DNA from: a virus
Length of the DNA: 64,000 nucleotides
IMG/VR virus record: IMGVR_UViG_3300045988_180190
Reading direction: 5' to 3' (one strand)
Under the pieces are notes generated by a model that did no database searches, was not told where the DNA came from, and was given only the letters and a program-made list of their open reading frames with translations. This document shows positions 8,337-64,000 of this stretch, piece after piece (position 1 is the stretch's first letter; each line of letters starts with the position of its first letter). Position numbers and translations under genes: made by a program.

Positions 8337-11300
8337 TTACTTAATTTGGTATTTCTGGCAAGCGTTTTTTAGTCCAATTTGTAATTCATGTTTTTCTTCT
8401 TCCGAAGGAGCTGTGCTCCAACGCTTTGTGACTTCAACTTCAATATTATATCGTAATCTGCCTCCTTTCAAATCCCAATAATTGTTATCCGACATAAAAA
8501 ATTTAAGCATACTGCTAGCGAGATCTACTTCCTCATAGGGTGCTAAAATGTAAATAGCGTCATATAACGGTATCACCGCCCTACTTTTCATATGCAACCT
8601 CATGAAACAAGCATTTAATGCAGGTATAGCTCTTGCTAGTGAATCAGCAACCAATGACTGAAGCCCTATATTACAAGCTTCTCTACGTAACTTACTAACA
8701 ATACTTTCCCTTAGATCATCTGACATTTGAGCATCCAGAGGGGGAACTTTGAAATGGCGTTTAAAACCTGAGGGAGACAAATAATACCCCTGTCCCTCTG
8801 GGAGAGTTTTGCACCAATCTAAATATTCTTTTACCTGTGGCTTGGTATTCATATAACCGTCAATAACTTTTTGCCCGGTACCAGGTTCTGGTTTTTCTCC
8901 AGCGGCAATCTCAATTTTTCTCTCCAGCAATGAGGGGCTTGCACCATAAGGTATAGAGTTATGTGACAAAAGGGTCATATCTATATACTTATGTGTATCA
9001 CACTCAATAGCTATTACGTCATATGAAGGAATCAGTTCTTTCGAGACTACTTTAATTATAGCTACAGTTTCCCCTAAGAAGAAATGATCTAAATAAGTTA
9101 ATGACAACTTATGATCACCCTCTAAAGTTGTGCACCAGCCTATCGTAGATGCTAAGACTGCTAAATCGGATAGTAGATCATCGTTAGGAGACTCTAAGCT
9201 TTGTTCCCCTTCCTTAAACAATTTGCAAATGATTTCACTTCTTATGGTTGGGTCACACACAAATAACTCGCAAGGAAGTCTATACGACATGTTACTAGAG
9301 TTACTAATAATATCATTCACGAAATAATCTACGTCATGACTTACATTAACATCCTTTTTCCCGAATGGAATATTAAAGCTAAAAGAAAGAACGTCGGCAC
9401 CTATGCTTAAATCTTCCACCTTTTCCCATTTCTCATAATGGCTGTCTCTACCATCACGTGAAACCCTCAGTTTATGGTCGCTCTTAAATGTAGCTACCAC
9501 ACCATTACTAAAGCGCACCTTATAGCATTCTTGATCCTTTAACCTTACAACATTAAGTACTCTTGTGGCATCAAACGGAGATTTTAAATAGTCTCCTACT
9601 TGAATAGTGTTAGCCTTAACATATCCACCCTTAGATATAGAATAAATATAATTTTCTTCTCCAGAGCAGAAATTAGCGGTTTTGCCTATAGCATTACGTG
9701 TTTTACGCTTATCGAGTTTTTCCCGTGGAGTATTTAAAACATATTTATTCTCTACGGCTGTCCAATGAACATCCTGTAGCGGATGTTTCAGGGTTCCATC
9801 TTTATTACGTACCAAATCTGGGTCATTAGGATCTGTAAGCAATGCTGGGTCTTTCGCATCTTCTGTGAATTCCACTATGTCATCACAGTATGCTATACGC
9901 ACTTGCTTAATACTCCCATCCGGCATTTTCTTGAACGCAAATTGAGGATCAGGGTCATTCAGTGTAGCAATCAATTTTTTGTCATTTGCTAAATATGCGA
10001 TCGTGAATACCTCCGCTGTGGCGTAGTCGGCATCAACAAAACAATAACCTTCTGGGGCTTTGAAACACCATCTTAAAGGTACAGGAACCAAATCCTTAAT
10101 TGTTATATTCTCTTTTATATTATAAGTACTTTTCAGAGAATCAACAATACTCCTAAAATTATCTTGGTCGTAGTTTGAAGTGTCAGATATATCTTCTACA
10201 TTAAGAAACTTTAAAACTTTCTTAAATCCATGACTAATATAGTCGGAAACGTCACTTGGAACATTTAATATATTTGGTTTAAACGACCGTGGTCTACTCG
10301 ATTCGGTCATAACAAAGTTGGAATGCAGCCTTCCATCCGAAGTTAAATACTTTTGCAATCCACCGTCTTCCCCCTTCAAGAAACTTTTTGTAACTTGGTT
10401 TATAGCATTTAGTTGTAATAAATGCAAACATAAGTCATCCCCTTTATCAGAAAATATCTTTAACGTATCTTTATCCACTGCAGGAGAATATTTCTTTTGT
10501 TTAGCCGGGGGCATTTTTAAGACTCTCTCCCAGGGAATGGCATTTCCTTCTTGGGGTTTTGTAGTCTTGATCGGCGTGTACTTTTTTATGTCAAATAGCC
10601 AACGCTTTTTATGATCCGCAGAATTAGGATTAAAAGAATCTATTGTGTAATAATGCTCGAGATAAGGTAGGATAGGCAAGGCATTGCGTTTATACAAGCG
10701 TTTCAAAAGATTAAATATATCTTCCAAACTTCTACCTTCTTCAAAATATCTTTGTATTTCTGCAATATTAGCGATAGGGGTTTCTTGAGCTATCTTAGAG
10801 ACTTCAGTATAAAATAAGTCATGCGCCTCTTTTTTAATCATCATCATAAATAGCTTCTGCATTATAAGACCTGCAGCGAGATAAGCTATTCTAGCTTTAT
10901 TAGCATCCTCTGCGCAAAATGGTACCCCCGCTATAGACATAGAGGTAAATCCATCAATCACAAACGGCAATTTTATATTCATAAAATAGTCATAAGTGCC
11001 GTCCCTTATTAGCATGTCTTTTATAATTGGATATAATCTAAAGGTCACATCTGCGTCAGAACATCCGTAAGGAAACAAAATACTCAATGGAATTTGACCA
11101 TATCCTTGTTCCTCGTCAAAAGACACTCCTTTATTAGATTTTTTCCAAAGAATCAGCTCAATGTCATATCTACCTTTATCTGTATACTTTGCTGCCAGTT
11201 TCTCCAATTTTTGATCCGCATATTCGTCTACAGTTTGTATGCCAAACATTGTATCAAAAATAAACTTTCCATTATACACCTCTAAACCTAAATGTGTAAG

Positions 11301-12266
11301 CATCCACTGTGCGTCAGCTGCACCATTATGCCCTATATAATGAATATCAGGAGAATTAAAGAAACTCTGTAAAAGTTCACAGACCTGTTCCTTGGTAGCG
11401 TCAAACACCCATTCCCCTTGCTCATTATTGAGATTAATATATGCAGCCTGACCCGGAGCCCAAGCAAATTGGATTGATCTAAGATACCCATCCACAAAGC
11501 ACTGCTTGCCCCACTCACAGTCCACACTGAATAATTTATAATTATTGGATTTAAAGTACTCTATTAACTTCTTAAGGTGATCAAATGTTGACACACATTG
11601 GTAGTCGCAAGGTATTTGTTGTATCGTTGTTCCTTGGAGGAAGTGATCGTAAAAATTTGCTAAGATACGAATATCTTGATTAAGTTTATCATACAACTCA
11701 GGCTTATAATAAGCTTTATAGATACTACTAATTACAAAAACATGTGCATTATACTTCTCACTAAAAAACCAAGCTTCTTCGAGTTTAGACACACTTATTT
11801 TATAATTTAAAATAAAATCGCAAGCTTCTGCCCCAACACAGACGATTATCTTTGGATTACAATACCGCATCTCTTCCTCAAGGAGAGGTAAGCAATAATT
11901 TATATCTTTTTTAATACCCTTTAAAACAGACTGATTTAACCCATACTTCACCACAGAAGTAAAATAACAGTCGTCCAGGTCAATGCCGTTTTGAAGGCAT
12001 AAAGACCTAAACATTTCCCCTGCTCCAGATTTTAAATGCATGGGCGCAGAATATCTTGAGTCAATATCTTCCTTCAAAGGCGCCGGAACTAAAAACATTA
12101 TATCTGCCCCAAGTCTACCAACACCATTAAGAAATACTACATTATCATTTTCAGGAGAAGTATCATCTTTTATTCTTTTAAGTGATAGATCACCACAAAA
12201 GTCCGATAAGCTTGGACAAGGTAACTCCATGTTTACCTTGGGAAAATTAATTTCAGTTTCTTTCAT
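8337..12266 (-). CDS. polA: family A DNA polymerase with N-terminal UDG-like domain, 3'-5' exonuclease domain and an intein in motif B
   Basis: UDG-family-4-like GADIMFLVPAPLKED and KIIVCVGAEA. Exo motifs FSVDCEW, HNGAADAQW, YGCSDAD. Pol motif A is VDADYATAEV. Motif B, RNAIGKTANF ... SIPYG, is split by the intein. Confidence 0.9.
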   Translation of the reverse strand: MKETEINFPKVNMELPCPSLSDFCGDLSLKRIKDDTSPENDNVVFLNGVGRLGADIMFLVPAPLKEDIDSRYSAPMHLKSGAGEMFRSLCLQNGIDLDDCYFTSVVKYGLNQSVLKGIKKDINYCLPLLEEEMRYCNPKIIVCVGAEACDFILNYKISVSKLEEAWFFSEKYNAHVFVISSIYKAYYKPELYDKLNQDIRILANFYDHFLQGTTIQQIPCDYQCVSTFDHLKKLIEYFKSNNYKLFSVDCEWGKQCFVDGYLRSIQFAWAPGQAAYINLNNEQGEWVFDATKEQVCELLQSFFNSPDIHYIGHNGAADAQWMLTHLGLEVYNGKFIFDTMFGIQTVDEYADQKLEKLAAKYTDKGRYDIELILWKKSNKGVSFDEEQGYGQIPLSILFPYGCSDADVTFRLYPIIKDMLIRDGTYDYFMNIKLPFVIDGFTSMSIAGVPFCAEDANKARIAYLAAGLIMQKLFMMMIKKEAHDLFYTEVSKIAQETPIANIAEIQRYFEEGRSLEDIFNLLKRLYKRNALPILPYLEHYYTIDSFNPNSADHKKRWLFDIKKYTPIKTTKPQEGNAIPWERVLKMPPAKQKKYSPAVDKDTLKIFSDKGDDLCLHLLQLNAINQVTKSFLKGEDGGLQKYLTSDGRLHSNFVMTESSRPRSFKPNILNVPSDVSDYISHGFKKVLKFLNVEDISDTSNYDQDNFRSIVDSLKSTYNIKENITIKDLVPVPLRWCFKAPEGYCFVDADYATAEVFTIAYLANDKKLIATLNDPDPQFAFKKMPDGSIKQVRIAYCDDIVEFTEDAKDPALLTDPNDPDLVRNKDGTLKHPLQDVHWTAVENKYVLNTPREKLDKRKTRNAIGKTANFCSGEENYIYSISKGGYVKANTIQVGDYLKSPFDATRVLNVVRLKDQECYKVRFSNGVVATFKSDHKLRVSRDGRDSHYEKWEKVEDLSIGADVLSFSFNIPFGKKDVNVSHDVDYFVNDIISNSSNMSYRLPCELFVCDPTIRSEIICKLFKEGEQSLESPNDDLLSDLAVLASTIGWCTTLEGDHKLSLTYLDHFFLGETVAIIKVVSKELIPSYDVIAIECDTHKYIDMTLLSHNSIPYGASPSLLERKIEIAAGEKPEPGTGQKVIDGYMNTKPQVKEYLDWCKTLPEGQGYYLSPSGFKRHFKVPPLDAQMSDDLRESIVSKLRREACNIGLQSLVADSLARAIPALNACFMRLHMKSRAVIPLYDAIYILAPYEEVDLASSMLKFFMSDNNYWDLKGGRLRYNIEVEVTKRWSTAPSEEEKHELQIGLKNACQKYQIK
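8958..9668 (-). other. intein (237 aa) in PolA motif B
   Basis: Cys1 codon is at 9668-9666 (KTANF|CSGEENYIY). The C-terminus is DMTLLSHN|SIPYG, with the Asn codon at 8960-8958 and Ser +1. The flanks rejoin to the PolA motif B consensus NF-x-x-x-YG. Confidence 0.85.
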
Positions 12267-12324: not shown

Positions 12325-15300
12325 TTATCCACAAGCGGACCACCCGCAGCTATAACATTTTTTACAACCCTCTTCTCGCAGGACTTTACCCCCACAGACG
12401 GGACAGGTCTCTCCCAAGTCTAACTTACCAGCGCATTGTAACAACACCTTGTTTATAGCTTTTACAATCGATGTGAAATCTCCTTCAGTTTTAGATAGCT
12501 GATGTATAATTTCTTTTAATGATACACCAGATTGAAGATTCAAAGCTACCAGTCTTGCCAAGGCTGTAAGCGTTGCCTTATCCGAGGACTCATTTGTTTT
12601 AACTATTTTGTAATGGAATTTGCCGTCCTTAGAGGTAAACTCAAATGTAGCTTTAGCTATTTTTCTTAATGTTCCCTCCTTGACGTGTTTAGGTATAATC
12701 CTACGGCGTTCAACCCATTCTCCTTCGTCATCAAATATATTATCCTCATTTATATCTATAAACATCTCAAAGGGGCAATCTCCAAGAAAGCTTACTATAA
12801 AGTAGTAGGATACTCCTTTGACTGTTCTAAAGAATACCCTACAAGGCAAAACGTCTGGACGTTTATCAGCAGTTATTGTTGGGTGGATAATAGAAGTAGA
12901 AGTTGGATTTACGTCTTCTTTAGCATCTGTAGACTGTAAGACGGCACTCATTGAGCCTTCTCTGTAGGTAGTAACCCCTTTAATTACTCCGCTATTATAT
13001 GCGTCTAAATAAACGTTCTTAAACTGTTCATAAGGATAGTCCTTACCGACATTTATCGTTTTACTTACAGCGGAATCCAAATGCGCAGATACGAGTTTCA
13101 GAATTTCCAGATGAGATTCAACAGGCAATTGCATAGCTGTTGTGAAAACTTCCTGTGGATATTCTAAATTATGATCCTTAATCCATTGATAGGCATAATC
13201 TCTTATGAGCACCTTCTTGCAAAGACCTCTATCCTTATGTATCTGATACTCTACGCCATCTTCTCCTGTGTAAGTTAGATACGTGAAGTCAGCATATTTA
13301 GCTTCTTTAAAGTACGCATTAGGTTTAAAGTCTCCCTCCCAGAATCTAGGGCATTTATCTCTTAGAAAATCTGGAATATTAGGCATTCCTACGATGCGGT
13401 AGTACTCTAGTTGAAATACAGGTTCTACGCCTCCTGAAATATTATTTGCCAAACAACCAGTATTTCCCGTGGGCTGGACTGAGAACAAGGCTGAATTGCG
13501 AATGCCGTTAGTTTCTAACAATTCTTTTTGCAAAGCATCCAATATATACTTCGGCAGATGTCTAAACGTATATTTTATATTATCAGCATGTTTTGCAGGA
13601 TTACATCCTTTAAACGCACCTTTACATTTAGCTAAAGCAATGCTTGCCCTTATCCCTAAGAAATTATAAACATCAAAAACTTTAGTTAAAAAGTCTTTAG
13701 CTTCCGTAGAATCATATTTTAAACCCAACATCATTAAGGCAGAACCTATGCCTGTAATGCCAAGTCCGATTCTTCGATAGCTTTCAGCCATATATTTATA
13801 TTCTTTCAAAGGCAGATTCGCAATGTCTATGACATTATCCAAGAATCTTACGCAATAAGGAATAATATCGGAAAACTTCTGAAAATTAAAAACAGCAGCG
13901 TGTTTGATTTCATCATATTCTATAAATGCTGTGAGATTGATGGATCCTAAATTGCAGCATCCTCCGCTGTATAAAACCTGCTCTCCGCACTGCTGATTAT
14001 TAAGCATATAAAATTTTGGATGTCCATGTTCGTTCACAGTTTCAAACATCCCAACGCAATAATTATGCACATCATCAACTGTACCGGTATAGACATCTTG
14101 TTTGCCTATATATTCAATAGACACAATTCTATGATTAAAATCAACAGCCTGCGTCTTTAAATCCGCGTAAGAACGGAAAGCAGAAATCGGACCAAATCTA
14201 TGAGGAATCTTATTTTGTTTGCAATAAGAATCAAACTCACATTTAAATGGATCTCTTGACAGAGCAAATTTTAAATCCGTATAAGCTTTAAGTTGTCTTA
14301 TTCTATTCTCACCTTTTGTCTTAGAAGCATAGTTTGAAATTCCCTGTCGCAAATGCTGTATGTAATTTTCCTGCTTAAGTTTGTTACGATTCACACAGAG
14401 ATTTGAACAAAAAGCTACTTCCCTGCTTTGGAAAGGTGTAAAGAACTCTTTACCACAATTTTCACAAATCTTTTTTACTAAAACTCTATTATTAACAATC
14501 TTTGTTTCATAACCTTGTGATACGGCATTTAGATATGTTCTTTGCAACCTACTATCACATTTCATTAAATCATTATAAACACCTAAAGCTTTAGCAGCAT
14601 ATTTACAAATATCACGAATACCTCCGCCTCCAAAAAACTTGACACGATAATCATCATTAAATGACTGTAATACGTGAAAACCTCTAGAAGCTAACTCATC
14701 TTGTAATTCTTTTACAGAGAAGAATCTTTGATATTTTAAAATTAAATCTTTCGCAATATCTAAAAGTATCTCATTAGAAACACCTTTATAATTCTTATTC
14801 TTTTCTCCAAATGAAGCATTTTTTTGCTTCTCTTTATAGGAATCCCACTTTGCCTTAGTCCACTCTGTAGCGGCACGACACATAGGATTAGTCTTTCCAA
14901 ACATACGCTTACAATGTAAAGCATCATGCGCAGCTTTTGACATAACTTCTAAATTATCTAAAGAATTATTTAATCCGTTATAATCCTTATGATGCACAAC
15001 TTCTGCATTAGTGAGTCTTCTACCTATAACATATTCAGCATTAATGCGATGTAATGCCTTGCGAGACTTTTTTCCGGAAGTCTTTATCCAAGCATATAGT
15101 TGAGAATTACTCGATCTATTAAAGATTTCATTAAACTTCTGGTATGAAATAGAAGCAACATACAAAGATTCTCCTGGGGACATATCTTTTACCTCTTTAT
15201 ATGTACCATCGGATAATCTAAACTTATGATTAGACGTGCAATCAATATGATTACCATCATCTAAAGTCACTCGATAAATATCTTTATTATAGCCTGTAAT

Positions 15301-16467
15301 ACGAGGATTACGCATTAACTTTGTAACAATATTGCCAGCATTATCACAAGCTAACACCGGAACATCTCTGCCAGCTTCGGCCAACTCTTTAATAGTCACA
15401 TTTGTACGCCCGTCAGCAACAGCAACTTTGGTATCTCCAGTAAGACAAGGATTTGTCCCAACTAATTGCAACTCAGGTATATAGTTTGCGCAATGTGTCT
15501 CATTTGCCCTATCGAGAAATAAAACTCCAGGTTCCGAACGATTGCTAGTAGACTGCATTAAAGCTTCCCACAAATCCGTAGCCCTAACTGTGCGATAAAC
15601 TTTAACGGGGTAACCTTTTTTCTCCCATTTATCCAAGTCTCCATCCCATTCGGATTTATATTTTTCAAAAGCCGTATCAGGAAATCTCAATTGCCAAAAA
15701 TCAACAGCATCGATTTCTTCCTGCGAAGCATTGTTTTTAACAAGATCGTTAACTCTATTTAAAATATCCATAAAAGCATTGGTAACATTTACGGACATAT
15801 TCATTTTCGTTAAATGAAACGGCTTTTGCTTGGCAGTAATAAATTCGTAAATATCAGGGTGCCAGCAGCTTAAGCATAGCATCATTGCGCCCTTACGAAT
15901 TTTCTTCTTTTCGTTCTTGGGCGTTTTTTCTTTACTCTCTATATAATAATCTCCCGGACCTTCCGTAATAATCTCGGAACTTTTATCAAACAGCTCCAAA
16001 TACTTCACAGCGCCGGGTGTTCTAGCACCTATGCCTTCTATATAAGAACCTCTGGGACGAATAAAACTGCAATTTAAACCCCAACCCCCTTCAGATTTTA
16101 AAGTCAAAACCTGATTCTTTAAGACCTCCATGATTCCTTCAACGGAATCCATATCATACTTAGGTTGGGGGGATAAAAAACAGTTGACGAGGGAGACATT
16201 TGTGCAATTTCCCCCGGCATTTGCCAATATGCGGCCTCCGGGTATAAACTTAAAATCTTTTAAAATATCATAAAAAGCATTGGCATAAAATCTTTTGGAT
16301 TCGTCATCCTTTTCTACGTTAGCTACGGCATTTGCCACACGTCTCCATGTATCTGTAATACTATTTTCATTTTGCGTTTTATAAGTTACTTCCCAAATCT
16401 GACGGGAAAAATCATTCGTAAACGGATCCGGATTATCCGGAGTTTTTGCTTTTAATTGTTCGTCCAT
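12325..16467 (-). CDS. nrdJ: class II (adenosylcobalamin-type) ribonucleotide reductase interrupted by an HNH intein
   Basis: Active-site loop GTNP[intein]CGEQVLYSGGCCNLGSINL. Cys-rich C-terminal tail CPVCGGKVLREEGCKKCYSCGWSACG. No NrdB-like partner is in the window. Confidence 0.85.
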   Translation of the reverse strand: MDEQLKAKTPDNPDPFTNDFSRQIWEVTYKTQNENSITDTWRRVANAVANVEKDDESKRFYANAFYDILKDFKFIPGGRILANAGGNCTNVSLVNCFLSPQPKYDMDSVEGIMEVLKNQVLTLKSEGGWGLNCSFIRPRGSYIEGIGARTPGAVKYLELFDKSSEIITEGPGDYYIESKEKTPKNEKKKIRKGAMMLCLSCWHPDIYEFITAKQKPFHLTKMNMSVNVTNAFMDILNRVNDLVKNNASQEEIDAVDFWQLRFPDTAFEKYKSEWDGDLDKWEKKGYPVKVYRTVRATDLWEALMQSTSNRSEPGVLFLDRANETHCANYIPELQLVGTNPCLTGDTKVAVADGRTNVTIKELAEAGRDVPVLACDNAGNIVTKLMRNPRITGYNKDIYRVTLDDGNHIDCTSNHKFRLSDGTYKEVKDMSPGESLYVASISYQKFNEIFNRSSNSQLYAWIKTSGKKSRKALHRINAEYVIGRRLTNAEVVHHKDYNGLNNSLDNLEVMSKAAHDALHCKRMFGKTNPMCRAATEWTKAKWDSYKEKQKNASFGEKNKNYKGVSNEILLDIAKDLILKYQRFFSVKELQDELASRGFHVLQSFNDDYRVKFFGGGGIRDICKYAAKALGVYNDLMKCDSRLQRTYLNAVSQGYETKIVNNRVLVKKICENCGKEFFTPFQSREVAFCSNLCVNRNKLKQENYIQHLRQGISNYASKTKGENRIRQLKAYTDLKFALSRDPFKCEFDSYCKQNKIPHRFGPISAFRSYADLKTQAVDFNHRIVSIEYIGKQDVYTGTVDDVHNYCVGMFETVNEHGHPKFYMLNNQQCGEQVLYSGGCCNLGSINLTAFIEYDEIKHAAVFNFQKFSDIIPYCVRFLDNVIDIANLPLKEYKYMAESYRRIGLGITGIGSALMMLGLKYDSTEAKDFLTKVFDVYNFLGIRASIALAKCKGAFKGCNPAKHADNIKYTFRHLPKYILDALQKELLETNGIRNSALFSVQPTGNTGCLANNISGGVEPVFQLEYYRIVGMPNIPDFLRDKCPRFWEGDFKPNAYFKEAKYADFTYLTYTGEDGVEYQIHKDRGLCKKVLIRDYAYQWIKDHNLEYPQEVFTTAMQLPVESHLEILKLVSAHLDSAVSKTINVGKDYPYEQFKNVYLDAYNSGVIKGVTTYREGSMSAVLQSTDAKEDVNPTSTSIIHPTITADKRPDVLPCRVFFRTVKGVSYYFIVSFLGDCPFEMFIDINEDNIFDDEGEWVERRRIIPKHVKEGTLRKIAKATFEFTSKDGKFHYKIVKTNESSDKATLTALARLVALNLQSGVSLKEIIHQLSKTEGDFTSIVKAINKVLLQCAGKLDLGETCPVCGGKVLREEGCKKCYSCGWSACG
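13990..15447 (-). other. intein (486 aa) with HNH endonuclease domain in the RNR catalytic loop
   Basis: It starts CLTGDTKVAV (Cys codon 15447-15445). HNH motif is EVVHHKDYNGLNNSLDNLEVMSKAAHDALH. Zinc finger is CENCGKEFF...CSNLC. Block F is VYTGTVDDVHNYCVG. It ends ...KFYMLNNQQ|CGEQ (last Gln codon 13992-13990). Confidence 0.8.
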
Positions 16468-40092: not shown

Positions 40093-40504
40093 AAGGTTTA
40101 AATTCTTTAAATTGGTTATAGTTTGTTGAGTATAGAATACGTTTAAAGTGAAACATATTTAATACTCGTTGGCAGTTTACACACGGTTTGGCGTTTGCCA
40201 GTAACCCATTGTTGTCTATCCTAATATTAACTAATGTTAATTTATGATAGTCGTTTCTAAATAAAATTTGTTTTATACAGGCAATCTCTGAATGTAAACC
40301 TATGGTATGTGTATACGCAATAGGTTTATATTCATTATACTTGCCAAAAATTTGGTAAGGATGCAACTGTGTATAATCGTTATACCCAATTGCTATTACC
40401 TTACTTCCTCTCAAAGCTACTGTGCAATGAAATGCCCTTCCTGTCTGTAACGCTTCCTTTGCTAGTTTAGCTTTTTTGACAAGCGTTCTTAGAATTGGTT
40501 TCAT
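40067..40504 (-). CDS. cytidine/deoxycytidylate deaminase-like zinc enzyme
   Basis: HSEIACI (H[AS]E) and PCVNCQRVL (PCxxC) at the correct spacing. Confidence 0.75.
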   Translation of the reverse strand: MKPILRTLVKKAKLAKEALQTGRAFHCTVALRGSKVIAIGYNDYTQLHPYQIFGKYNEYKPIAYTHTIGLHSEIACIKQILFRNDYHKLTLVNIRIDNNGLLANAKPCVNCQRVLNMFHFKRILYSTNYNQFKEFKPYEMDCCNL

Positions 40505-42665
40505 GCAAATATTGCTTTCTTACTTCAATAATACTATGGTTAGCGGCATAGTCTTGGCTTTTGGTTTTTAGCCAATTTACAAATAAAACTTCATCTTGGT
40601 CGATAAATGTTTGTTTTAAATTGTTTCTAGCGTAACCTTGCATTATACCTCTGAAACGTTTCCACTTTTTATAGAAATTGGTTTTAAACTTAAACCTAAA
40701 GTTGTTTGCATCCACAAACACAAAGCCTTCGTGTCTTAGTCTCTTTTCGTTTTCCAATTTCGTTAATTCCTTTTCCAAGCTACTCCAATTATCATAGGTC
40801 TTATACAATTCCTTATATGGCATACCCCAAGAATCAGCAAGCTTTACCAGCTCAGGATAAGGTACATACGTTTCAGAAAAATCATTGCTTATAATATCCA
40901 AGAGAACAATCTTTGGGACATCATATTCAATTATATGGGGATCATTCTTAGGATCAATGACTTCGAAAATTAGCGTTACATTATTTTCCTTTGCATACTG
41001 TAGTGCATTTTCACAGAATATATAGCTATAAAACAAAAGCTTAAACCAATCTGCGTGCTCTCCTTTATTTGTTGATTTTGAGGAAATAAATGGTTTTTGC
41101 TTTTCTTTATCCCAACTTACTAATCCCAAGAATCCATTTTCTTTTTTGTAAGCAGTTACAGGAAACACTAAGTTTTTGCTCAAAGCAGCTAATGAGGTCG
41201 TATTGTTCTCTTTGAGGTTAAAAAACTTCTCATAGCTTCTTGCTATGATTTCATCACCTCTGCAGAACAAGCCCCTAGCTTTTACACGCATTGTATCCCA
41301 GGCTTTTGACAGAAACACGTCTCTGCTAAACTTGTAGGATACTATGTCATCTTCAAGCTTCTGTTTTAGTATATGCTTATCATTGTTTAACGATTTAATT
41401 ATTTCATTATTAGATTCCGGGTCATTTAATTGCCTTACTGTAACTGGAGCGGGCTTATGCACAGGGTTTTCAAAACTAAGAATTCTCGTTTTGCATTCCC
41501 CACACACTTCTCTGAGTTCTAGCACTCGCAAGGGTTCTCCATATTCTACCGCTGAGTTCAAGTTAATAACTTGATCCTCTGCATTGGGAACAGTATGTTC
41601 AAGATTCCTATGCCCATGTGCCTGGCATATGAAATCTGGATATCTTGACTTCCAAGCTTCCGCTACTTGCGATACGTCCTCATACTTCCCGACTCCCTTT
41701 ATGTACTCTACAGTCGATAGCTTAAGACTCGGCAGCACAGGAATACCCCCATGGGTTACTAGCCAGGTTTTATCATGATAATTGAAAAACGCTAGTTGAC
41801 CTAGAGACCTGCAGAATTGCCTAATGTCAGATACATCTATAGATTTGATTTGTGGGAGCGTATTGTCCCTAAACTCACTAGATCTAATCTTCTCAAAATC
41901 TTTTGGATCTTTCGAAGAATAATACCTAAGCCAAGCTTCGTGATTGCCTTCCAGACACAATACGTTTTTATTTTTGGAAATCTCTATGAAAAATTCCAAG
42001 GTTTCCTTGTTTTGGATACCCCTATCTATGTAGTCTCCTACAAAGATATATTTATTGTTTTCACTGAAAGGATTTTCCTTGAAGAACGCTTTTATAGGTT
42101 CTACGCAACCATGTATATCTCCAAATATATAGATTTTTTCAGCACTGCTATAATCTATTGGACTGAACCTCGAAATCATATCCAATGCTGCTTCAGGAGA
42201 TACAATGTGATATGCAGACTTCACTTGGTTATTCTCCGAGTTAAATACCGCATACATTTTGCGGATAACATGCTCAGGAACTACTTTATATCCAGTTCTA
42301 CCCGCATTTCTTCTGATGCATTCCTCCTCGGATATGTTCGTAAAATCTACAACAAAGACTCTATACCTATATTTTTCGATTAGATGCTTGTAAGCATTAA
42401 GCAACTCCCGTTTATAATGGGTGGCACCAATGATCACCATGTCACCATTTGACATTCTAAGCTCTAGGGTTTCTTTTAGCAAAGCCCATACCTTACTGTC
42501 CATTCTCTGGCTGATTCCAAGTTCTCCCGATGTATTAAGCACGGGAGAAGACATCATTGTGCGGATATTATCAGCACAAAGCGTATATGGCTCCAGCTCA
42601 TTATTCTTTATCCAAGTTGATTTTCCAGAGCCAGGAGCTCCTCTTAGCAAAAACAATGTACGCAT
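40467..42665 (-). CDS. pnkp: Pnkp-type RNA repair protein: polynucleotide kinase - metallophosphatase - ligase-like adenylyltransferase
   Basis: P-loop LLRGAPGSGKSTW. Calcineurin-type motifs IFGDIHGC, VGDYIDRG, LEGNHE, QAHGHR. The C-terminal domain has a nucleotidyltransferase Lys motif YKKENGFLG. Confidence 0.8.
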   Translation of the reverse strand: MRTLFLLRGAPGSGKSTWIKNNELEPYTLCADNIRTMMSSPVLNTSGELGISQRMDSKVWALLKETLELRMSNGDMVIIGATHYKRELLNAYKHLIEKYRYRVFVVDFTNISEEECIRRNAGRTGYKVVPEHVIRKMYAVFNSENNQVKSAYHIVSPEAALDMISRFSPIDYSSAEKIYIFGDIHGCVEPIKAFFKENPFSENNKYIFVGDYIDRGIQNKETLEFFIEISKNKNVLCLEGNHEAWLRYYSSKDPKDFEKIRSSEFRDNTLPQIKSIDVSDIRQFCRSLGQLAFFNYHDKTWLVTHGGIPVLPSLKLSTVEYIKGVGKYEDVSQVAEAWKSRYPDFICQAHGHRNLEHTVPNAEDQVINLNSAVEYGEPLRVLELREVCGECKTRILSFENPVHKPAPVTVRQLNDPESNNEIIKSLNNDKHILKQKLEDDIVSYKFSRDVFLSKAWDTMRVKARGLFCRGDEIIARSYEKFFNLKENNTTSLAALSKNLVFPVTAYKKENGFLGLVSWDKEKQKPFISSKSTNKGEHADWFKLLFYSYIFCENALQYAKENNVTLIFEVIDPKNDPHIIEYDVPKIVLLDIISNDFSETYVPYPELVKLADSWGMPYKELYKTYDNWSSLEKELTKLENEKRLRHEGFVFVDANNFRFKFKTNFYKKWKRFRGIMQGYARNNLKQTFIDQDEVLFVNWLKTKSQDYAANHSIIEVRKQYLHETNSKNACQKS

Positions 42666-58570: not shown

Positions 58571-59455
58571 TTATTTTTTCTGAAATACTGATTTATTGCT
58601 CTTCAGCTTTCTGTCGAAATCTGCCTTGGATATGCCGGTTATCTCTTCGAATATTTTATAGTCAAAGTTTGGCAACTCAAGTGTTAGAATCACGTCTTGA
58701 ACCGTAGCCCTTGAAAATTCGCGTTTAAACATCTCCTTTTCAGGATGCTTTACCCTCAAAATCCAAAGAGGCCAAGGAATACTACGGGCATCTACGTCTG
58801 TTTCTTTGTTAAAGAAATAACATTTAGGGGATATGGTATTGAAACAACCACAGTTACGGTCCCCAATGTTAAAGGAACCAGTATTGTAGTTACCTATGTT
58901 CTTATCCCCCGTATTTTCGTTGCCGATGTTATATGCTCCACTGTTTCTGTACCCCACGTTAGATACTCCAGTATTATGATCGCCTATATTACCGTGACCG
59001 GTGTTGTAATTTCCTTTATTGCGGGTTCCAGTGTTAAGATTTCCCACATTTGGTCCCCGACTATTTTGGTATCCAATATTGTAATTGGGTCGCGGGGGTA
59101 GGTTATCTAAAGCACGATCTTCATAATACTTTATCCTACGCATGCAGGTTTTAGTAATTTCTTTGACCAGCCTTATCGTTTGACATAATATTTCAGGCGA
59201 GGTTCCCGCCACGTGTTCAATGCAAGTTTTCCCCTTAACGTCTACTTCGAATATTCTCACCTCCTCAAGTATTTCACCATACAAGGCAAAAATCCAGTTG
59301 GTAGAAACTTTATAGTGTGAGTCTTCAATTTTTGCAGCCGGAATCTTGGGAGTCCACTTTCCAGGCTTGTTACCTTGTGGCAAATAATCCGTGTAGTCAA
59401 ACCCGGAATTAATTACTTGATTATCTTCTACTCTAAGAACTATGTAGTTTTTCAT
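58571..59455 (-). CDS. NxGxx pentad-repeat (beta-helix-like) protein
   Basis: Sixteen consecutive pentads: NIGYQ NSRGP NVGNL NTGTR NKGNY NTGHG NIGDH NTGVS NVGYR NSGAY NIGNE NTGDK NIGNY NTGSF NIGDR NCGCF. The track N-terminus (to 59521) is encoded by the IS left end, so the likely start is MKNYIVL at 59455. Confidence 0.7.
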   Translation of the reverse strand: MKNYIVLRVEDNQVINSGFDYTDYLPQGNKPGKWTPKIPAAKIEDSHYKVSTNWIFALYGEILEEVRIFEVDVKGKTCIEHVAGTSPEILCQTIRLVKEITKTCMRRIKYYEDRALDNLPPRPNYNIGYQNSRGPNVGNLNTGTRNKGNYNTGHGNIGDHNTGVSNVGYRNSGAYNIGNENTGDKNIGNYNTGSFNIGDRNCGCFNTISPKCYFFNKETDVDARSIPWPLWILRVKHPEKEMFKREFSRATVQDVILTLELPNFDYKIFEEITGISKADFDRKLKSNKSVFQKK

Positions 59456-59584
59456 ATTATATCCTTTCTTTATTAGGAGTGTCAGAAAACTCACCAGCTC
59501 GTCTGGTGAGCTGAATGGCATCTTTGGTTATTTTGTTTTTTGTTCTTGACATAAATTTAAGTTAGTTGAAAATTTACTTAAACA

Positions 59585-60793
59585 ATGCCTAAAAAGACAA
59601 TATTTAAATCTTATAAATTTCGTCTTTATCCTGAAGATAAAGACAAAGCTTTTTTATCTCAACATTTTGGGCATTGTAGGTTTGTATATAATTACTTCCT
59701 AAAAGAAAAGCAGAATTTTTATCTTAAAAACAAGAAAACTTTAAATTATAACAATTGTTCAGCCGCGTTAACTACTCTTAAAAAACAAAAAGAATACTCG
59801 TGGTTAAAAGACGTGAACTCCCAAAGCTTGCAACAATCTTTAAAGCATTTGGAAACTGCATTTGGAAAGTTCTTTAAAAAAGAAACTAAATTTCCCGTTT
59901 ATAAAAATAAACATTCTTTTAATTCTTTTTCGATACCTCAAAATATTCGCATTGTTAAAAATCGAATTTTTATTCCCAAATTTAAACAAGGCATTCGATT
60001 TGTTAAACATAGGGAATTGAAAGGTAAGATTCTTAGCGCCACAATATCCCTAAACCCGTCGGGAAGATATTTCGTATCTATTTTAACATCACAAGAAATT
60101 GACGTTAAGAAATCTGTTAAAAATCCAAAAATTATTGGGCTGGATTTGGGGATAAAAGACTTCCTTATAACTTCTGACGGATCCAGATTTTCTAATTTTA
60201 AGTTTAAAAGACAGTATCAAACTAAGCTATCTAAGCTTCAAAAATATCTAAGTCGCAAACCCCAACCCAGTAATTCCAAAATAAAACTAAAACAAAAGAT
60301 TGCCAAACTTCACGAGAAGATAGCCAATTCCCGTGAGTATCTGCAACATTGTATTAGTAAACAACTGGTTGAAGAAAACGATGTTATATGTTTGGAAACA
60401 TTATCAGTTAAAAATATGATGAAAAACCACAAGCTCGCTTATGCTATAAGCGATAGTGCATGGACATCTTTTGTTTCCAAACTGGAATATAAATCGAAAT
60501 GGAAGGGAAAAGATATAGTTAAAATAGACCATTTCTTTCCTTCGTCCAAAACTTGCAATAGTTGCGGGTATATTAACCAAAAACTAACGCTTAAAGACAG
60601 GTCTTGGATTTGTCCTAAATGCGGCAAGCTTTTAGATCGAGATATAAACGCGGCTAAAAATATTTTAACCCGAGGATTGACCATAATCCTATCGTCCGCA
60701 ACAGACGATTACAGACATGGAGCTGAAATAAGACTTGGCTTGGATAATTTATCCAAGCCAAGCATAAGCAATGAAGTGTTTAAAATTGAATAG
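59585..60793 (+). CDS. tnpB: TnpB RNA-guided endonuclease
   Basis: YKFRLYPEDKDKAFLSQHFGHCRFVYN. RuvC residues in IIGLDLG, ICLETL and DRDINAAKNI. Zinc ribbon CNSCG ... CPKCG. It is closely similar to element 1 TnpB in its C-terminal half. Confidence 0.9.
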   Translation: MPKKTIFKSYKFRLYPEDKDKAFLSQHFGHCRFVYNYFLKEKQNFYLKNKKTLNYNNCSAALTTLKKQKEYSWLKDVNSQSLQQSLKHLETAFGKFFKKETKFPVYKNKHSFNSFSIPQNIRIVKNRIFIPKFKQGIRFVKHRELKGKILSATISLNPSGRYFVSILTSQEIDVKKSVKNPKIIGLDLGIKDFLITSDGSRFSNFKFKRQYQTKLSKLQKYLSRKPQPSNSKIKLKQKIAKLHEKIANSREYLQHCISKQLVEENDVICLETLSVKNMMKNHKLAYAISDSAWTSFVSKLEYKSKWKGKDIVKIDHFFPSSKTCNSCGYINQKLTLKDRSWICPKCGKLLDRDINAAKNILTRGLTIILSSATDDYRHGAEIRLGLDNLSKPSISNEVFKIE

Positions 60794-60839
60794 CTTTAAT
60801 GCTTTTCAAGCTCACTAGCTTGTCTAGTGAGTAGTTGAC
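60650..60839 (+). ncRNA. candidate omega RNA of element 3 (extent approximate)
   Basis: It covers the 3' end of tnpB plus the right end. Stems are cttggcttggataatttatccaagccaag and ctcactag/ctagtgag. It ends at gagtagttgac (60839). Confidence 0.4.
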
Positions 60840-60847
60840 TGTATTGA

Positions 60848-61345
60848 TTATTGCTTATTGCCTGCAGAATGCATGGCAAAAAATTTTTCAATGGGCATTT
60901 CAATTATTTTTCCTGTTTTTTTATGCCTAAACTTACATACAGTATTTGCTCTGCAGCATTTGGATATTTGGCGACTCCCTCTAAATACAGTAGAACAAGT
61001 TGGACCTATATTTAAGTTATAAAATATATGTGCGAAGGGAAAGTCCTTTAAAGACAATGGCGTTCCCAACGGATACGTAGGGTAATAGTACCCCAGTAGT
61101 GGAGAAATACTAAAATGCGTTAATTTTAGATAGTCAAAAAATGCTTCTTTATAAAGCTTTAAATTCTGATCACTTGCCGAAGTTTTTAACTGCTCATGCA
61201 TTTTGATAAGTCTCTTTACTGCCTTTTCCACCTTATCAAAGAAAAAGCTATCTGTTCGTAGCAATTTCTCGATGTCAAAGAATCCTCCTGCGTAGTCATA
61301 TGTAGCAGGGGGTAGCACTGTCGAACTGTTATCAGAATTATTCAT
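60848..61345 (-). CDS. terL: terminase large subunit N-terminal fragment fused to a 36-aa split-intein N-fragment
   Basis: It ends ...FAHIFYNLNIGPTCSTVFRGSRQISK | CCRANTVCKFRHKKTGKIIEMPIEKFFAMHSAGNKQ stop. GSRQISK is the first half of a TerL Walker A (RQxGK[ST]T). The track start at 61381 is a GTG, and the first ATG is at 61345. Confidence 0.75.
   Translation of the reverse strand: MNNSDNSSTVLPPATYDYAGGFFDIEKLLRTDSFFFDKVEKAVKRLIKMHEQLKTSASDQNLKLYKEAFFDYLKLTHFSISPLLGYYYPTYPLGTPLSLKDFPFAHIFYNLNIGPTCSTVFRGSRQISKCCRANTVCKFRHKKTGKIIEMPIEKFFAMHSAGNKQ
60851..60958 (-). other. split intein N-fragment (IntN, 36 aa)
   Basis: The Cys1 codon at 60958-60956 directly follows the Walker A Lys. The block A-like sequence is C-x4-T-x-C ... 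TGKIIEMPIEKF. Confidence 0.7.
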
Positions 61346-61390
61346 ATCAATAGCAGTCCAACAAAACTTATCCAAAAACACAAGTTTTTT

Positions 61391-62182
61391 TTAAAACACC
61401 CAATTAGTCCAATCAAATTCTGAACCTTTTGGAAATGTGGTATCTAACTCAAATCTTAGTTTTTCAGGAACTTCAGTCCAACCAGACCAAAGAGATTCAC
61501 CAAATTCTTGGGTAGTGGAATGGATTTCCTTCCCCAACAAGTTATCCTCATCTTTTATATCTCTGTGGGGACTAACGAGATATATGCCTTGATTTCCATT
61601 GCCCGTATCTTCATCGGCAAATAATAGGATGAACCTGTTTGAAAAATGTTTTTGAAATTCCAATAACCATCCTATAGGCGTAACCCAAGGCGTAGTAAAT
61701 ATAATTGAACAGTCTGAAACCGCTTGCAATGACGCATTCCATTTACACCCCCAATTAACAACCGACCAGTCATACCAGTCCTTAAATTTACATAGAGTCT
61801 TACAACAAAATTCGATTAGCTCTTGTTTTTGATCTCGTGTGAGATCTTCTACTTTATGAGCAATATCTTTTTGTGTATCCTTAATATATGACTGCAGTAT
61901 ATCAAAGAATTTATCCGGGTCGGTATCTTGGGTAATACGATTGTTTTTACAGCACTGGAGAACTAATTCTTTCCATCTTGTATTTTTTGGGAATTCAGTT
62001 GTTTGACAATATACCACACTGGGATGCTCTAAAATCTTGGGCATAGGTACCAGCTTATTGAAATCCATTTGCATTTTCGGATTCTTATCTGCAGATTTCG
62101 TATTTATGTCGCACAACTTTAATGCTTCCTTTAGCTGAGATTGATTTTTAAACACTAGTTGGTTAAGTACTTCATTGGGCAT
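61391..62182 (-). CDS. hypothetical protein, possibly DUF1281 / Api92-like
   Basis: DFNKLVPMP ... DWYDWSVVNWGCKWNA resembles the NWGTKWN motif of that plasmid and phage family. Recalled from memory, not searched. Confidence 0.45.
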   Translation of the reverse strand: MPNEVLNQLVFKNQSQLKEALKLCDINTKSADKNPKMQMDFNKLVPMPKILEHPSVVYCQTTEFPKNTRWKELVLQCCKNNRITQDTDPDKFFDILQSYIKDTQKDIAHKVEDLTRDQKQELIEFCCKTLCKFKDWYDWSVVNWGCKWNASLQAVSDCSIIFTTPWVTPIGWLLEFQKHFSNRFILLFADEDTGNGNQGIYLVSPHRDIKDEDNLLGKEIHSTTQEFGESLWSGWTEVPEKLRFELDTTFPKGSEFDWTNWVF

Positions 62183-62292
62183 GATCGTTCTCCTGTAAGT
62201 TTAATATGTTCAGATTTATAGAATTGTTATTTAAGATTATTATTGACCTTTAGAGTTTTTGTAATTTACATTTTTTTAGCTTATTCATAATT

Positions 62293-62664
62293 ATGCCTGA
62301 AAAAATTGAATCCAATAATCCAAAGTTCATAGAAAGCTATTCTGTTGAGGATTGGCAAATTGAAACTCCCAATGGTTGGGAGGATATTGAAAGTGTGCAC
62401 AAAACAATACCTTTCGATGTATGGCAGATTGTTACCGCTAACAAGAAAGTGTTGCACTGTGCAGATGAGCATGCTGTCATAACAGAAAACGGGGAGAAGA
62501 CACATGCTAAAAAATCATTGGATAATAATATTATTACCTCAGATGGAATCTCTTCAGTGGTGTCAGTAGATAAATTACCATTACCACCGGAGCATATGTA
62601 TGACATCACCTTAAAAAGTGATACCTCCCATGTATATTTTACTAATGGTATTTTAAGCCATAAT
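62293..62664 (+). other. split intein C-fragment (IntC, 124 aa)
   Basis: Hint-domain blocks: ...VLHCADEHAVITENGEK, block F MYDITLKSDTSHVYF, block G TNGILSHN, followed by Thr +1 (62665). Confidence 0.75.
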
Positions 62665-64000
62665 ACTACTAACATGCTTGTTGCCGCAGATTTATATTGT
62701 AGGATAATTCCTGGTTTAAGAATTGCTACAATTGTACCTAGAGTAGACCAACTAAGTACATTGGGGTACAAGCTGAAAGAAATAGAGCAAGGTTATAGGT
62801 TTAACCCAAGCAAGGTAAACGCAAAATTTAAATCCAATTTGCATTATAAAGAATATGATCACGGCAAGGCTAGAATGTCCTTGCATAGAATGTATTACAT
62901 TCTTACAGATGCTTCAAAAATGCGTTCACCTACATTTGATTGGATTAATTTCGACGAATATCAAGATTTCGATTCAACGTTAGAAAAAGTTGTCAAATCT
63001 ACACAATCTCGTTCCGAATTTAGATCTGTAACCTACGGTGGCACCTCAAAATCAACGGATACTCCTTTGGAGCAACGTTGGCTGGAATCTGCAAGAGGAC
63101 TTTGGAGAATGACTTGTCCTGCTTGCCATTTTGACAATTATCCGGATTTAAACCACAATGTATTGGATATGATACGCCCAAAGGGTTTATGCTGTCTAAA
63201 ATGCGGGAGAGTTTTAAACGTGCGTAATGGTTGTTGGGATTTCGAAGCACCTGCCATGTTAAAATATGGCTTATGGGGATTTCATATACCGCAAATCATA
63301 GTTCCAGCTAATACAGAGAAACAATCAATTTACATCGATATTTACAAAGCTTCGCAATCTTCAGATAAAAAATCATTTTTAGAAGAGTATCTTGGTGAGG
63401 CTACAGAATCTGGTACTAAAGAAATAACAACAAAAGATCTGCAAAATATCTGCATTCTAGGGGATATACGTGACGTACAAAAGCAAGCAATCGCCGCTGT
63501 TCCTCCAAAATATATCTTTAAAGTATCTGGATGCGACTGGGGAGGTTCGGACTACAATCCTGCGACAAGGTCCAAAGCTTCATATACTGCACATTGTATA
63601 ATTGGGGTCACCCCAGATCACAAGTTCGACATACTTCATATGAAAAAATATGCAGGTATGGACTACGATGATATTACGCACTGTATTGCCAAAGATCATC
63701 ATAGATTTGGATGTTATGCTCTCGCTAATGACTACGGTAATAATGCAGTATACGTAAATGAGTTAAAGAAACTTGTTGATCCATTGAAAGTTATCTTGTT
63801 TAAATATAAGGCTACCGGAACCTTCCTTTCGATACCGAAAAATTCCGAGATGTTTAATTTATATTCCCTGCATCGCACAGATAGTATTACAACTTTGTTT
63901 ATGGATGTGAAAAACCGTCGCCTGCGCTCACCACGTTGGGACCAAGTCGTTGAATTTCTAAAAGACTTTTTGGTTTTGACTCGTGTGCCATGGGAGTCCC
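62293..64000 (+). CDS. terL: split-intein C-fragment fused to the terminase large subunit C-terminal part (ORF runs off the right edge)
   Basis: My translation is MPEKIESNNPKF...GILSHN|TTNMLVAADLYCRIIPGLRIATIV ... Walker B WINFDEYQDF ... YGGTSKS ... nuclease-domain VSGCDWGGSD. The frame is open to 64000 and absent from the ORF track because it has no stop. Confidence 0.85.
   Translation, partial: MPEKIESNNPKFIESYSVEDWQIETPNGWEDIESVHKTIPFDVWQIVTANKKVLHCADEHAVITENGEKTHAKKSLDNNIITSDGISSVVSVDKLPLPPEHMYDITLKSDTSHVYFTNGILSHNTTNMLVAADLYCRIIPGLRIATIVPRVDQLSTLGYKLKEIEQGYRFNPSKVNAKFKSNLHYKEYDHGKARMSLHRMYYILTDASKMRSPTFDWINFDEYQDFDSTLEKVVKSTQSRSEFRSVTYGGTSKSTDTPLEQRWLESARGLWRMTCPACHFDNYPDLNHNVLDMIRPKGLCCLKCGRVLNVRNGCWDFEAPAMLKYGLWGFHIPQIIVPANTEKQSIYIDIYKASQSSDKKSFLEEYLGEATESGTKEITTKDLQNICILGDIRDVQKQAIAAVPPKYIFKVSGCDWGGSDYNPATRSKASYTAHCIIGVTPDHKFDILHMKKYAGMDYDDITHCIAKDHHRFGCYALANDYGNNAVYVNELKKLVDPLKVILFKYKATGTFLSIPKNSEMFNLYSLHRTDSITTLFMDVKNRRLRSPRWDQVVEFLKDFLVLTRVPWES

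Follow-up and report, generated by a model that had tools for sequence, protein, structure and literature searches.

The 64,000-nucleotide stretch of viral DNA analyzed here (IMG/VR virus record IMGVR_UViG_3300045988_180190; hereafter, the window) carries at its right end two genes on opposite strands which, judged by sequence comparison, encode one naturally split terminase large subunit (TerL). The leftward gene (the N-half) comprises the N-terminal part of TerL (the N-extein) and a short N-terminal intein fragment (IntN), and the rightward gene (the C-half) comprises a long C-terminal intein fragment (IntC) and the remainder of TerL (the C-extein). The two halves are divergently transcribed, with one unrelated gene and a 110-bp spacer between them (Table 1). 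The alignments described below place the break inside the Walker A loop, which is complete only once the halves are joined.

Table 1. Features of the split terL locus and its flank (positions in the window; aa, amino acids; slashes here and in the text mark junctions between extein and inserted sequence)
Feature	Position	Strand	Description	Basis
N-half gene	60848-61345	-	165 aa, ATG start at 61345	
TerL N-extein	60959..61345	-	129 codons; last residues GSRQISK, the opening portion of Walker A	translation
IntN	60851..60958	-	36 codons, CCRANTVCKFRHKKTGKIIEMPIEKFFAMHSAGNKQ; block A/N1, strands beta1-2, helix alpha1	
N-half stop codon	60848..60850	-		
Intervening gene	61391..62182	-	263 aa, DUF1281/Api92-like	Pfam, PHROG
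Divergent intergenic region	62183..62292		110 bp, AT-rich; presumed promoter region	sequence
IntC	62293..62664	+	124 codons; block B His (CADEH), block F Asp (MYDITL), block G ending SHN	alignment A3, profile, predicted fold
TerL C-extein	62665..64000	+	+1 Thr onward (K/TT); ~72 codons short at window end	homology
tnpB-only IS200/IS605-type insertion	59475..60839	+	1365 bp; TnpB open reading frame 59585-60793	Pfam/PHROG TnpB

At the sequence level, the open reading frames (ORFs) are accurately described by the initial annotation: the N-half ends in GSRQISK followed by a 36-aa peptide initiated by Cys (junction GSRQISK/C), and the C-half begins with a 124-aa IntC, continues with TTNM, and carries a Walker B motif. 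IntC ends with ...HVYFTNGILSHN (final residues, ...MYDITLKSDTSHVYFTNGILSHN), and the C-extein begins with TTNMLVAADLYC... (opening residues, TTNMLVAADLYCR...), the junction reading ...GILSHN/TTNM. The C-extein contains the Walker B motif INFDEYQDF, a zinc-ribbon-like CxxC...CxxC insert, and a nuclease domain; D221/E222 of Walker B (nucleotides 62953-62958) are nearly invariant among relatives. The window copy of the C-half runs off the end of the sequence, and its full length of 641 aa was taken from a 99%-identical database protein (P0011). The ORF map also agrees with the earlier description of the halves as lying on opposite strands, divergently transcribed, with an unrelated gene in between.

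The exteins were compared with unbroken members of the same protein family. The conceptual spliced product is 74% identical to an intein-free, contiguous TerL of 638 aa (P0015), and the alignment is gap-free across the junction (GSRQISKTTNMLVAADLYCR versus GSRQIAKSTNMLLSSDLYCR; P0015 reads SRQIAK/STNML). Identity is 56% to P0038 and 44% to P0044, both alignments again being gap-free across the Walker A K/S or K/T position, and the N-extein alone aligned at 68% with residues 10-120 of P0015. Both the proposed break between the P-loop Lys and Ser/Thr and the assignment of the two exteins to adjacent parts of TerL are borne out by these gap-free alignments. When annotated phages were searched with tblastn, residues 100-574 gave a single continuous alignment with the TerL proteins of Bacillus phage Andromeda and related phages, and annotated TerL proteins of Bacillus, Vibrio, and Salmonella phages were also matched. 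In profile searches, the C-half matched PHROG 675, terminase large subunit, with an E value of 9e-30, over profile positions 144 onward only, and a further search gave 4e-30 for the same family; the N-half alone had no curated-family match in Pfam or PHROG. Homologues of the N-half were found in a large protein database as 10 clusters of 139-179 aa, in all of which ...RQI[GS]K precedes Cys or Ser and a tail of 25-40 aa.

The inserted sequence is predicted to form a class-1 Hint-domain intein with an S2-type break. An unbroken insertion of 153-164 aa is present at exactly the same site in three relatives of 780-787 aa (P0016, P0034, and P0037). The conceptual precursor is collinear with all three; for P0016, whose unbroken intein is 153 aa long, identity is 55% across 715 aa. 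IntN (KCCRANTVCKFRHKKTGKIIEMPIEKFF) pairs residue for residue with the start of the P0016 mini-intein (KCVIGDTLCKFRHKFTGKIVILSIKKFY), and the natural break coincides with an indel in this alignment. When an alignment of 30 family inteins (A3) was used as a profile against the Protein Data Bank (PDB), the solved inteins VidaL (1e-19), gp41-1 (7e-15), and CatC (6dsl_B; 9e-11) were retrieved, with DnaX, NrdJ-1, PolB, and others ranked lower; 16 of the 30 members individually matched Pfam Intein_splicing. Profile searching thus connects the C-half with TerL and the family of inserted sequences with inteins, as the initial annotation had anticipated.

Structure prediction agreed with the profile searches. 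AlphaFold2 folded the fused IntN and IntC into a Hint domain with a predicted local distance difference test (pLDDT) score of 94 and a predicted template modeling score of 0.88, with strands at residues 7-12 and 18-22 and a helix at residues 23-32. The sole low-confidence block of the model, residues 31-40, straddles the 36/37 break directly after this helix. Foldseek returned 62 matches at an E value of ≤0.001, and among the 50 listed, 46 were inteins and 4 were a bacterial-intein-like (BIL) domain; the best match was VidaL, with template modeling (TM) scores of 0.75/0.82. The catalytic residues are also retained. Position 1 is Cys in the window and Cys or Ser in all 10 N-halves, whereas the block B His (H96), the block F Asp (D140), H159, and N160 are invariant in A3, and the +1 residue is Ser or Thr throughout the family, the listed junctions reading HN and then S or T. 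With its 36-aa IntN, its 124-aa IntC, and its break after helix alpha1, the element fits the earlier suggestion of an intein that is atypically split and has a short IntN, of the AceL-TerL and GOS-TerL kind. As a separate observation, IntN (60935-60958, minus strand) carries Cys1, Cys2, and Cys8, and position 8 is Cys in 7 of the 10 aligned N-halves (Cxxx[DNR]TxC or SLNxNNLC). A disulfide between Cys1 and Cys8 acting as a redox trap is conceivable.

From the homology, collinearity, fold, conservation, and layout of the two genes, we infer that obligatory protein trans-splicing very probably rebuilds the Walker A loop of TerL and that packaging needs it. The first gene would supply TerL residues 1-129 joined to the 36-aa IntN, and the second would supply the 124-aa IntC joined to the remaining ~517 TerL residues. 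After translation, a class-1 Hint domain would form as the short IntN docks into the almost complete IntC. Cys1 would then attack the peptide bond of Lys129, the N-extein would pass to the +1 Thr, and cyclization of Asn124 of IntC would leave the exteins joined. The product would be a TerL of ~646 aa with an uninterrupted Walker A motif, GSRQISK-TT. Since the Ser/Thr of the P-loop doubles as the +1 nucleophile, no scar would be left.

Four points weigh against this reading. The window intein taken as a single sequence gave weak matches (Pfam Intein_splicing, 0.03; gp41-1 in the PDB, 0.17; CatC, 0.4), and the assignment owes its significance to the family profile and the fold. In block B, where TxxH is canonical, the window has Ala in place of Thr (CADEH); this position is Ala, Gly, or Ser in most relatives in A3. 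The search for a second TerL covered 64 kb of a genome of ~165-175 kb. Finally, IntN is fast-evolving, with a ratio of nonsynonymous to synonymous substitution rates (dN/dS) of about 0.5 on few sites. This ratio comes from a comparison with a clade of 84% identity, in which synonymous sites are saturated. In the same comparison, dN rose from 0.08 (C-extein) through 0.14 (N-extein) and 0.23 (IntC) to 0.48 (IntN), and in the exteins and IntC it was well below the saturated dS. Constraint thus acts on every part, with the intein changing more rapidly than the protein that hosts it.

The opposite-strand layout is not confined to the window. The order C-half (minus), 263-aa gene (plus), N-half (plus) was found in ENA and Logan contigs (L001, L002, L003, and L004) and in two IMG/VR contigs (L008/L014 and L009/L015), and a contig from a fifth sample (L005) carries the 263-aa gene and the N-half and ends before the C-half. 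In total, the layout is shared by no fewer than six contigs, which come from five or more samples and from different assemblers. In the 84% clade (L010-L012 and L017-L019), the two strands again carry one half each, at a distance of 5-10 kb that is occupied by other genes.

The wider gene order suggests how this layout arose. In the near-identical contigs, the genes past the C-half, encoding proteins of 207 aa and 368 aa, thymidylate kinase, and others, lie on the strand of the N-half; therefore, the C-half is a single gene set against a long co-directional array. The position of the N-half at the head of a leftward gene block, as the initial annotation had it, proved to be an artifact of the window edge, since the array continues beyond the C-half in these contigs. 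In L163 (intein-free) and L165/L166 (contiguous intein), too, the unbroken terL has its strand to itself, and it is convergent with orthologues of the two genes that encode the 207-aa and 368-aa proteins. This downstream synteny reaches distant family members; neither of the two convergent genes had a PHROG match. Throughout the phage group, terL or the C-half stands alone on its strand (L163, 1407-3323; L165, 10001-12364; L001, 5364-9051). Judged by gene order, a lone antisense terL appears to be ancestral, the C-half keeping the ancestral locus and orientation. Since the unbroken terL is antisense in L163 and L165/L166, it would be the N-half that moved, not the C-half. The N-half would have been relocated onto the strand of its neighbors, about 1 kb upstream, behind the DUF1281-like gene. 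An invertible switch was considered and rejected: no meaningful inverted repeats were found in the flanks of the C-half gene, and the orientation is the same in every assembly.

A census of the 120 nearest protein clusters showed how variable the family is. About 44 clusters were split C-halves (IntC plus C-extein), about 15 had a contiguous insertion at this site, about 56 were intein-free TerL, and about 5 were fragments. Among the split members, the halves lie on one strand only 118 bp apart in L061 and about 1.1-1.2 kb apart in L042, L051, L055, and L060. L060 represents a classical fractured gene with a DUF559/Vsr-like ORF of 387 aa between the halves, and the other three have an unannotated ORF on the opposite strand in between. 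In L006 and L013/L020, the halves are on the same strand 5-6 kb apart. No N-half was found within 10 kb of the C-half in L029 and L065, both with full flanks. Comparison of related phage genomes, which had been proposed as a check, therefore yielded same-strand and contiguous arrangements besides the opposite-strand form. The novelty first attached to the layout was overrated, given dozens of split members with varied layouts and a terminase split intein with a 122-aa IntC reported in 2009 (PMC2677866).

Two further kinds of insertion were seen in this family. Split C-halves of 844-1136 aa (L060, 7856-11266; P0074, P0078, and P0126) have, downstream of the P-loop intein, one or more extra insertions; these are probably additional inteins, and Pfam Intein_splicing is listed for P0074 and P0126. 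Seven contiguous relatives (P0104, P0106, P0113, P0125, P0061, P0102, and P0121) carry insertions of 336-343 aa at the same P-loop site (e.g., L040, 8663-11587), which start with Ala or Glu and not with Cys or Ser (GRQIGK/ALEENE...VTHN/S; SRQIGK/EQPYSA...THN/S). The four proteins with Ala-initiated insertions matched Pfam LAGLIDADG_3, and three of these also matched Hom_end; the three with Glu-initiated insertions matched LAGLIDADG_3 only. Such insertions may be inteins that lack the N-terminal nucleophile.

The diversity of layouts would follow from trans-splicing. The split intein would derive from a contiguous mini-intein of the kind still present at the same site in relatives. Once the halves are joined at the protein level, the two genes would be free to separate and drift apart, hence the variety of layouts in the family.

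An adaptive regulatory role of the opposite-strand layout, with the halves in different transcription units serving as a timing device or AND gate for the packaging ATPase, is unlikely. According to this proposal, which goes back to the initial annotation, the N-half would be expressed with the co-directional array of its neighbors and the C-half would be under its own antisense promoter. Conservation of the layout in two clades, at 99% and 84% identity, is consistent with such a role, as are the single 110-bp divergent spacer flanked by the halves in the window clade and the replication genes encoded by the leftward array in the window. However, the unbroken terL was already antisense to the same neighbors, so separate transcription of the C-half is not a consequence of the split. 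The same-strand members at all three spacings and those with no N-half nearby, together with the wider and gene-filled spacing in the 84% clade, make the layout look free to drift. In addition, the spacer (62183-62292) gave weak sigma-70-like matches in both directions that were not above shuffled expectation. Regulatory significance is therefore less likely, because family layouts vary and the antisense position of terL pre-existed. Still less probable is an extended form of this proposal, in which relocation of the N-half and a separate antisense promoter for the C-half make trans-splicing a post-translational AND gate that times or licenses packaging, possibly with redox control through Cys1/Cys8. 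If true, split inteins in phage terL would be regulatory devices and not neutral relics of selfish elements.

It is very improbable that the halves associate through their intein fragments without splicing, the Hint domain acting as a noncovalent dimerization module or performing cleavage without ligation. Split-intein fragments do bind tightly, and block B lacks its canonical Thr. Nevertheless, a Hint domain of ~160 aa would then stay between the P-loop Lys and Thr, which, as reasoned from the structure of P-loop nucleoside triphosphatases, is incompatible with a functional Walker A motif. Binding, unlike the chemistry, has no need of Cys1 (replaced by Ser in some relatives), of the terminal His-Asn, or of the +1 Ser/Thr, the last two being invariant. 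Moreover, the homologous atypical TerL inteins AceL, GOS, and Cat are experimentally active in trans-splicing (PMC11766414).

Equally hard to sustain is the idea that terL was disrupted and survives only as two decaying ORFs, with another terminase elsewhere in the genome packaging the DNA. The visible portion of the genome is only 64 kb, and mobile elements are found nearby, namely, the TnpB insertion beside the N-half and other intein-containing genes along the window. Against this, every relative, even at only 45% identity, has both ORFs intact; the constraint on the exteins and IntC is evident from the dN values given above; and the catalytic intein residues and the Walker A and B motifs are all conserved. 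An intact terL elsewhere had been named in the initial annotation as an observation that would speak against a split gene. No second TerL-like sequence was found in a scan of the 64-kb window, and each large related contig has one TerL locus (best 80 of 227).

An assembly inversion or chimera as the source of the opposite-strand arrangement, a concern raised by the metagenomic origin of the data and by the TnpB element beside the N-half, can be given virtually no weight, because the same order recurs in contigs from different samples and assemblers (L001-L004, L008/L014, and L009/L015), none of which contains the TnpB element. The 84% clade likewise has its halves on opposite strands, and the C-half gene has no flanking inverted repeats.

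Obligatory trans-splicing of a split TerL remains the preferred reading, and several characterized systems can be compared with it. AceL-TerL, GOS-TerL, and the consensus intein Cat are biochemically active atypical split TerL inteins (PMC11766414). Their IntN is 25 aa long in AceL and 37 aa in GOS, and their IntC is ~104 aa (Thiel, 2014; Bachmann and Mootz, 2015; Stevens, 2018; as summarized in PMC11766414 and PMC13014065). The split position in AceL-TerL and GOS-TerL is S2, that is, after the first alpha-helix (PMC13014065). The window element resembles AceL-TerL, GOS-TerL, and Cat in having a TerL host, a short IntN (36 aa), a long IntC (124 aa), and an S2 break; the likeness to AceL and GOS is one of intein anatomy and split position. 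The family profile links the element to CatC, although sequence identity to these inteins is low and the single-sequence match to CatC is insignificant. The +1 residue is Thr here and Ser or Thr in the family, in contrast to Cys+1 in GOS-TerL (PMC11766414). VidaL (PDB 6vgv), the best structural and profile match to the window intein family, is split at the S1 site after beta2 and has a 16-aa IntN (PMC13014065), whereas the split here is later, and the two are only 20% identical.

A close precedent in anatomy comes from Dassa et al. (2009), who described a fractured terminase gene from Lake Gatun in which the intein is split at an unusual point and a C-part of 122 residues contains all motifs except N1 (PMC2677866). 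The intein anatomy is essentially the same, with an IntC of 124 aa here. The fractured-gene arrangement comprises three same-strand ORFs with a free-standing homing endonuclease in the middle (PMC2677866). Unlike this definition, the window has its N-half and middle gene on the minus strand and its C-half on the plus strand, and its middle gene is DUF1281-like and gave no match to a nuclease family or fold. The classical arrangement does occur in the family, in L060 with its DUF559/Vsr-like ORF. The window element is thus a new, divergent member of the atypically split TerL inteins, an atypical terminase split having been described already in 2009 (PMC2677866), and its unusual gene layout is evolutionarily explicable.

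Separation of an essential enzyme over two strands is not without parallel. A literature search on opposite-strand split inteins turned up only genome-editing papers. In Synechocystis, the halves of DnaE reportedly lie on opposite strands as separate genes and are joined by trans-splicing (a finding attributed to Wu, Hu, and Liu, 1998), so opposite-strand intein halves are not unprecedented. That case is said to concern a cellular genome, halves ~745 kb apart, a canonical break (long IntN and short IntC), and another host protein.

The 263-aa middle gene does not belong to the intein and probably shares a transcript with the N-half. It matched Pfam DUF1281_C at 1e-5 and PHROG 12644, a family of unknown function, and only six homologues were found in a large database. 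No PDB match was obtained by sequence or profile search. Its AlphaFold2 model was of moderate confidence only (pLDDT, 67), and the only fold match, a marginal one, was api92 (2ijr; E value, 4e-3). A role as a homing endonuclease therefore received no support from Pfam, PHROG, PDB sequence and profile searches, or the fold search, although with a model of this quality a cryptic nuclease keeps a small probability. In L006 and L013, the gene is missing between the halves.

The TnpB insertion lies 8 bp beyond the N-half stop codon. The adjacency noted in the initial annotation holds for the window, but as part of the layout it does not stand, because the element is a strain-specific insertion. L008, otherwise 97.5-97.8% identical, lacks the segment, and there a pentapeptide-repeat gene directly follows the N-half. 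The element is unrelated to the fracture, since near-identical genomes without it have the same split layout, and it was rejected as the cause of the rearrangement for the same reason. The insertion also lengthens the apparent pentapeptide-repeat ORF, which starts at 59521 in the window, with a likely true start near 59455. An Rfam scan of 59300-62400 detected no omega-RNA or other RNA family, and similar DNA in annotated phages was limited to a 92-bp insertion sequence fragment. The closest cellular relatives of the TnpB are only 50% identical and taxonomically scattered, and they give no clue to the host.

Other genes of the window are also of note. The ribonucleotide reductase large subunit (12325-16467, minus strand, 1380 aa) is interrupted by a large, contiguous intein that includes an HNH endonuclease domain (Pfam Intein_splicing, aa 349-805; HNH_3, aa 470-515), with the junctions GTNP/CLTGDT...FYMLNNQQ/CGEQ; judged by these junctions, this intein may end in Gln rather than Asn. 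A family-A DNA polymerase (8337-12266, minus strand, 1309 aa) has N-terminal uracil-DNA glycosylase and 3'-5' exonuclease domains, and its motif B carries an insertion of ~237 aa (GKTANF/CSGEEN...DMTLLSHN/SIPYGAS), which in its sequence looks like a third intein of the window. The 732-aa protein encoded at 40467-42665 (minus strand) combines a P-loop kinase (AAA_33), a metallophosphatase, and a T4 Rnl1-type RNA ligase and is a Pnkp/Rnl-like RNA repair protein.

The current understanding of inteins and of packaging is unchanged by this finding. The family comprises dozens of natural split inteins with a short IntN, with Cys1 or Ser1 and a Ser or Thr at +1, which are of interest for protein labeling, as few atypical ones have been characterized. 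Within otherwise syntenic phages, it also offers an evolutionary series of intein-free genes, contiguous mini-inteins, a classical fractured gene with a Vsr-like endonuclease, and adjacent, distant, and opposite-strand halves. This series should be useful for studying the origin of split inteins and the drifting apart of split genes. TerL is the universal and essential packaging motor, and making it only by trans-splicing would show how far the history of selfish elements reaches into essential genes.

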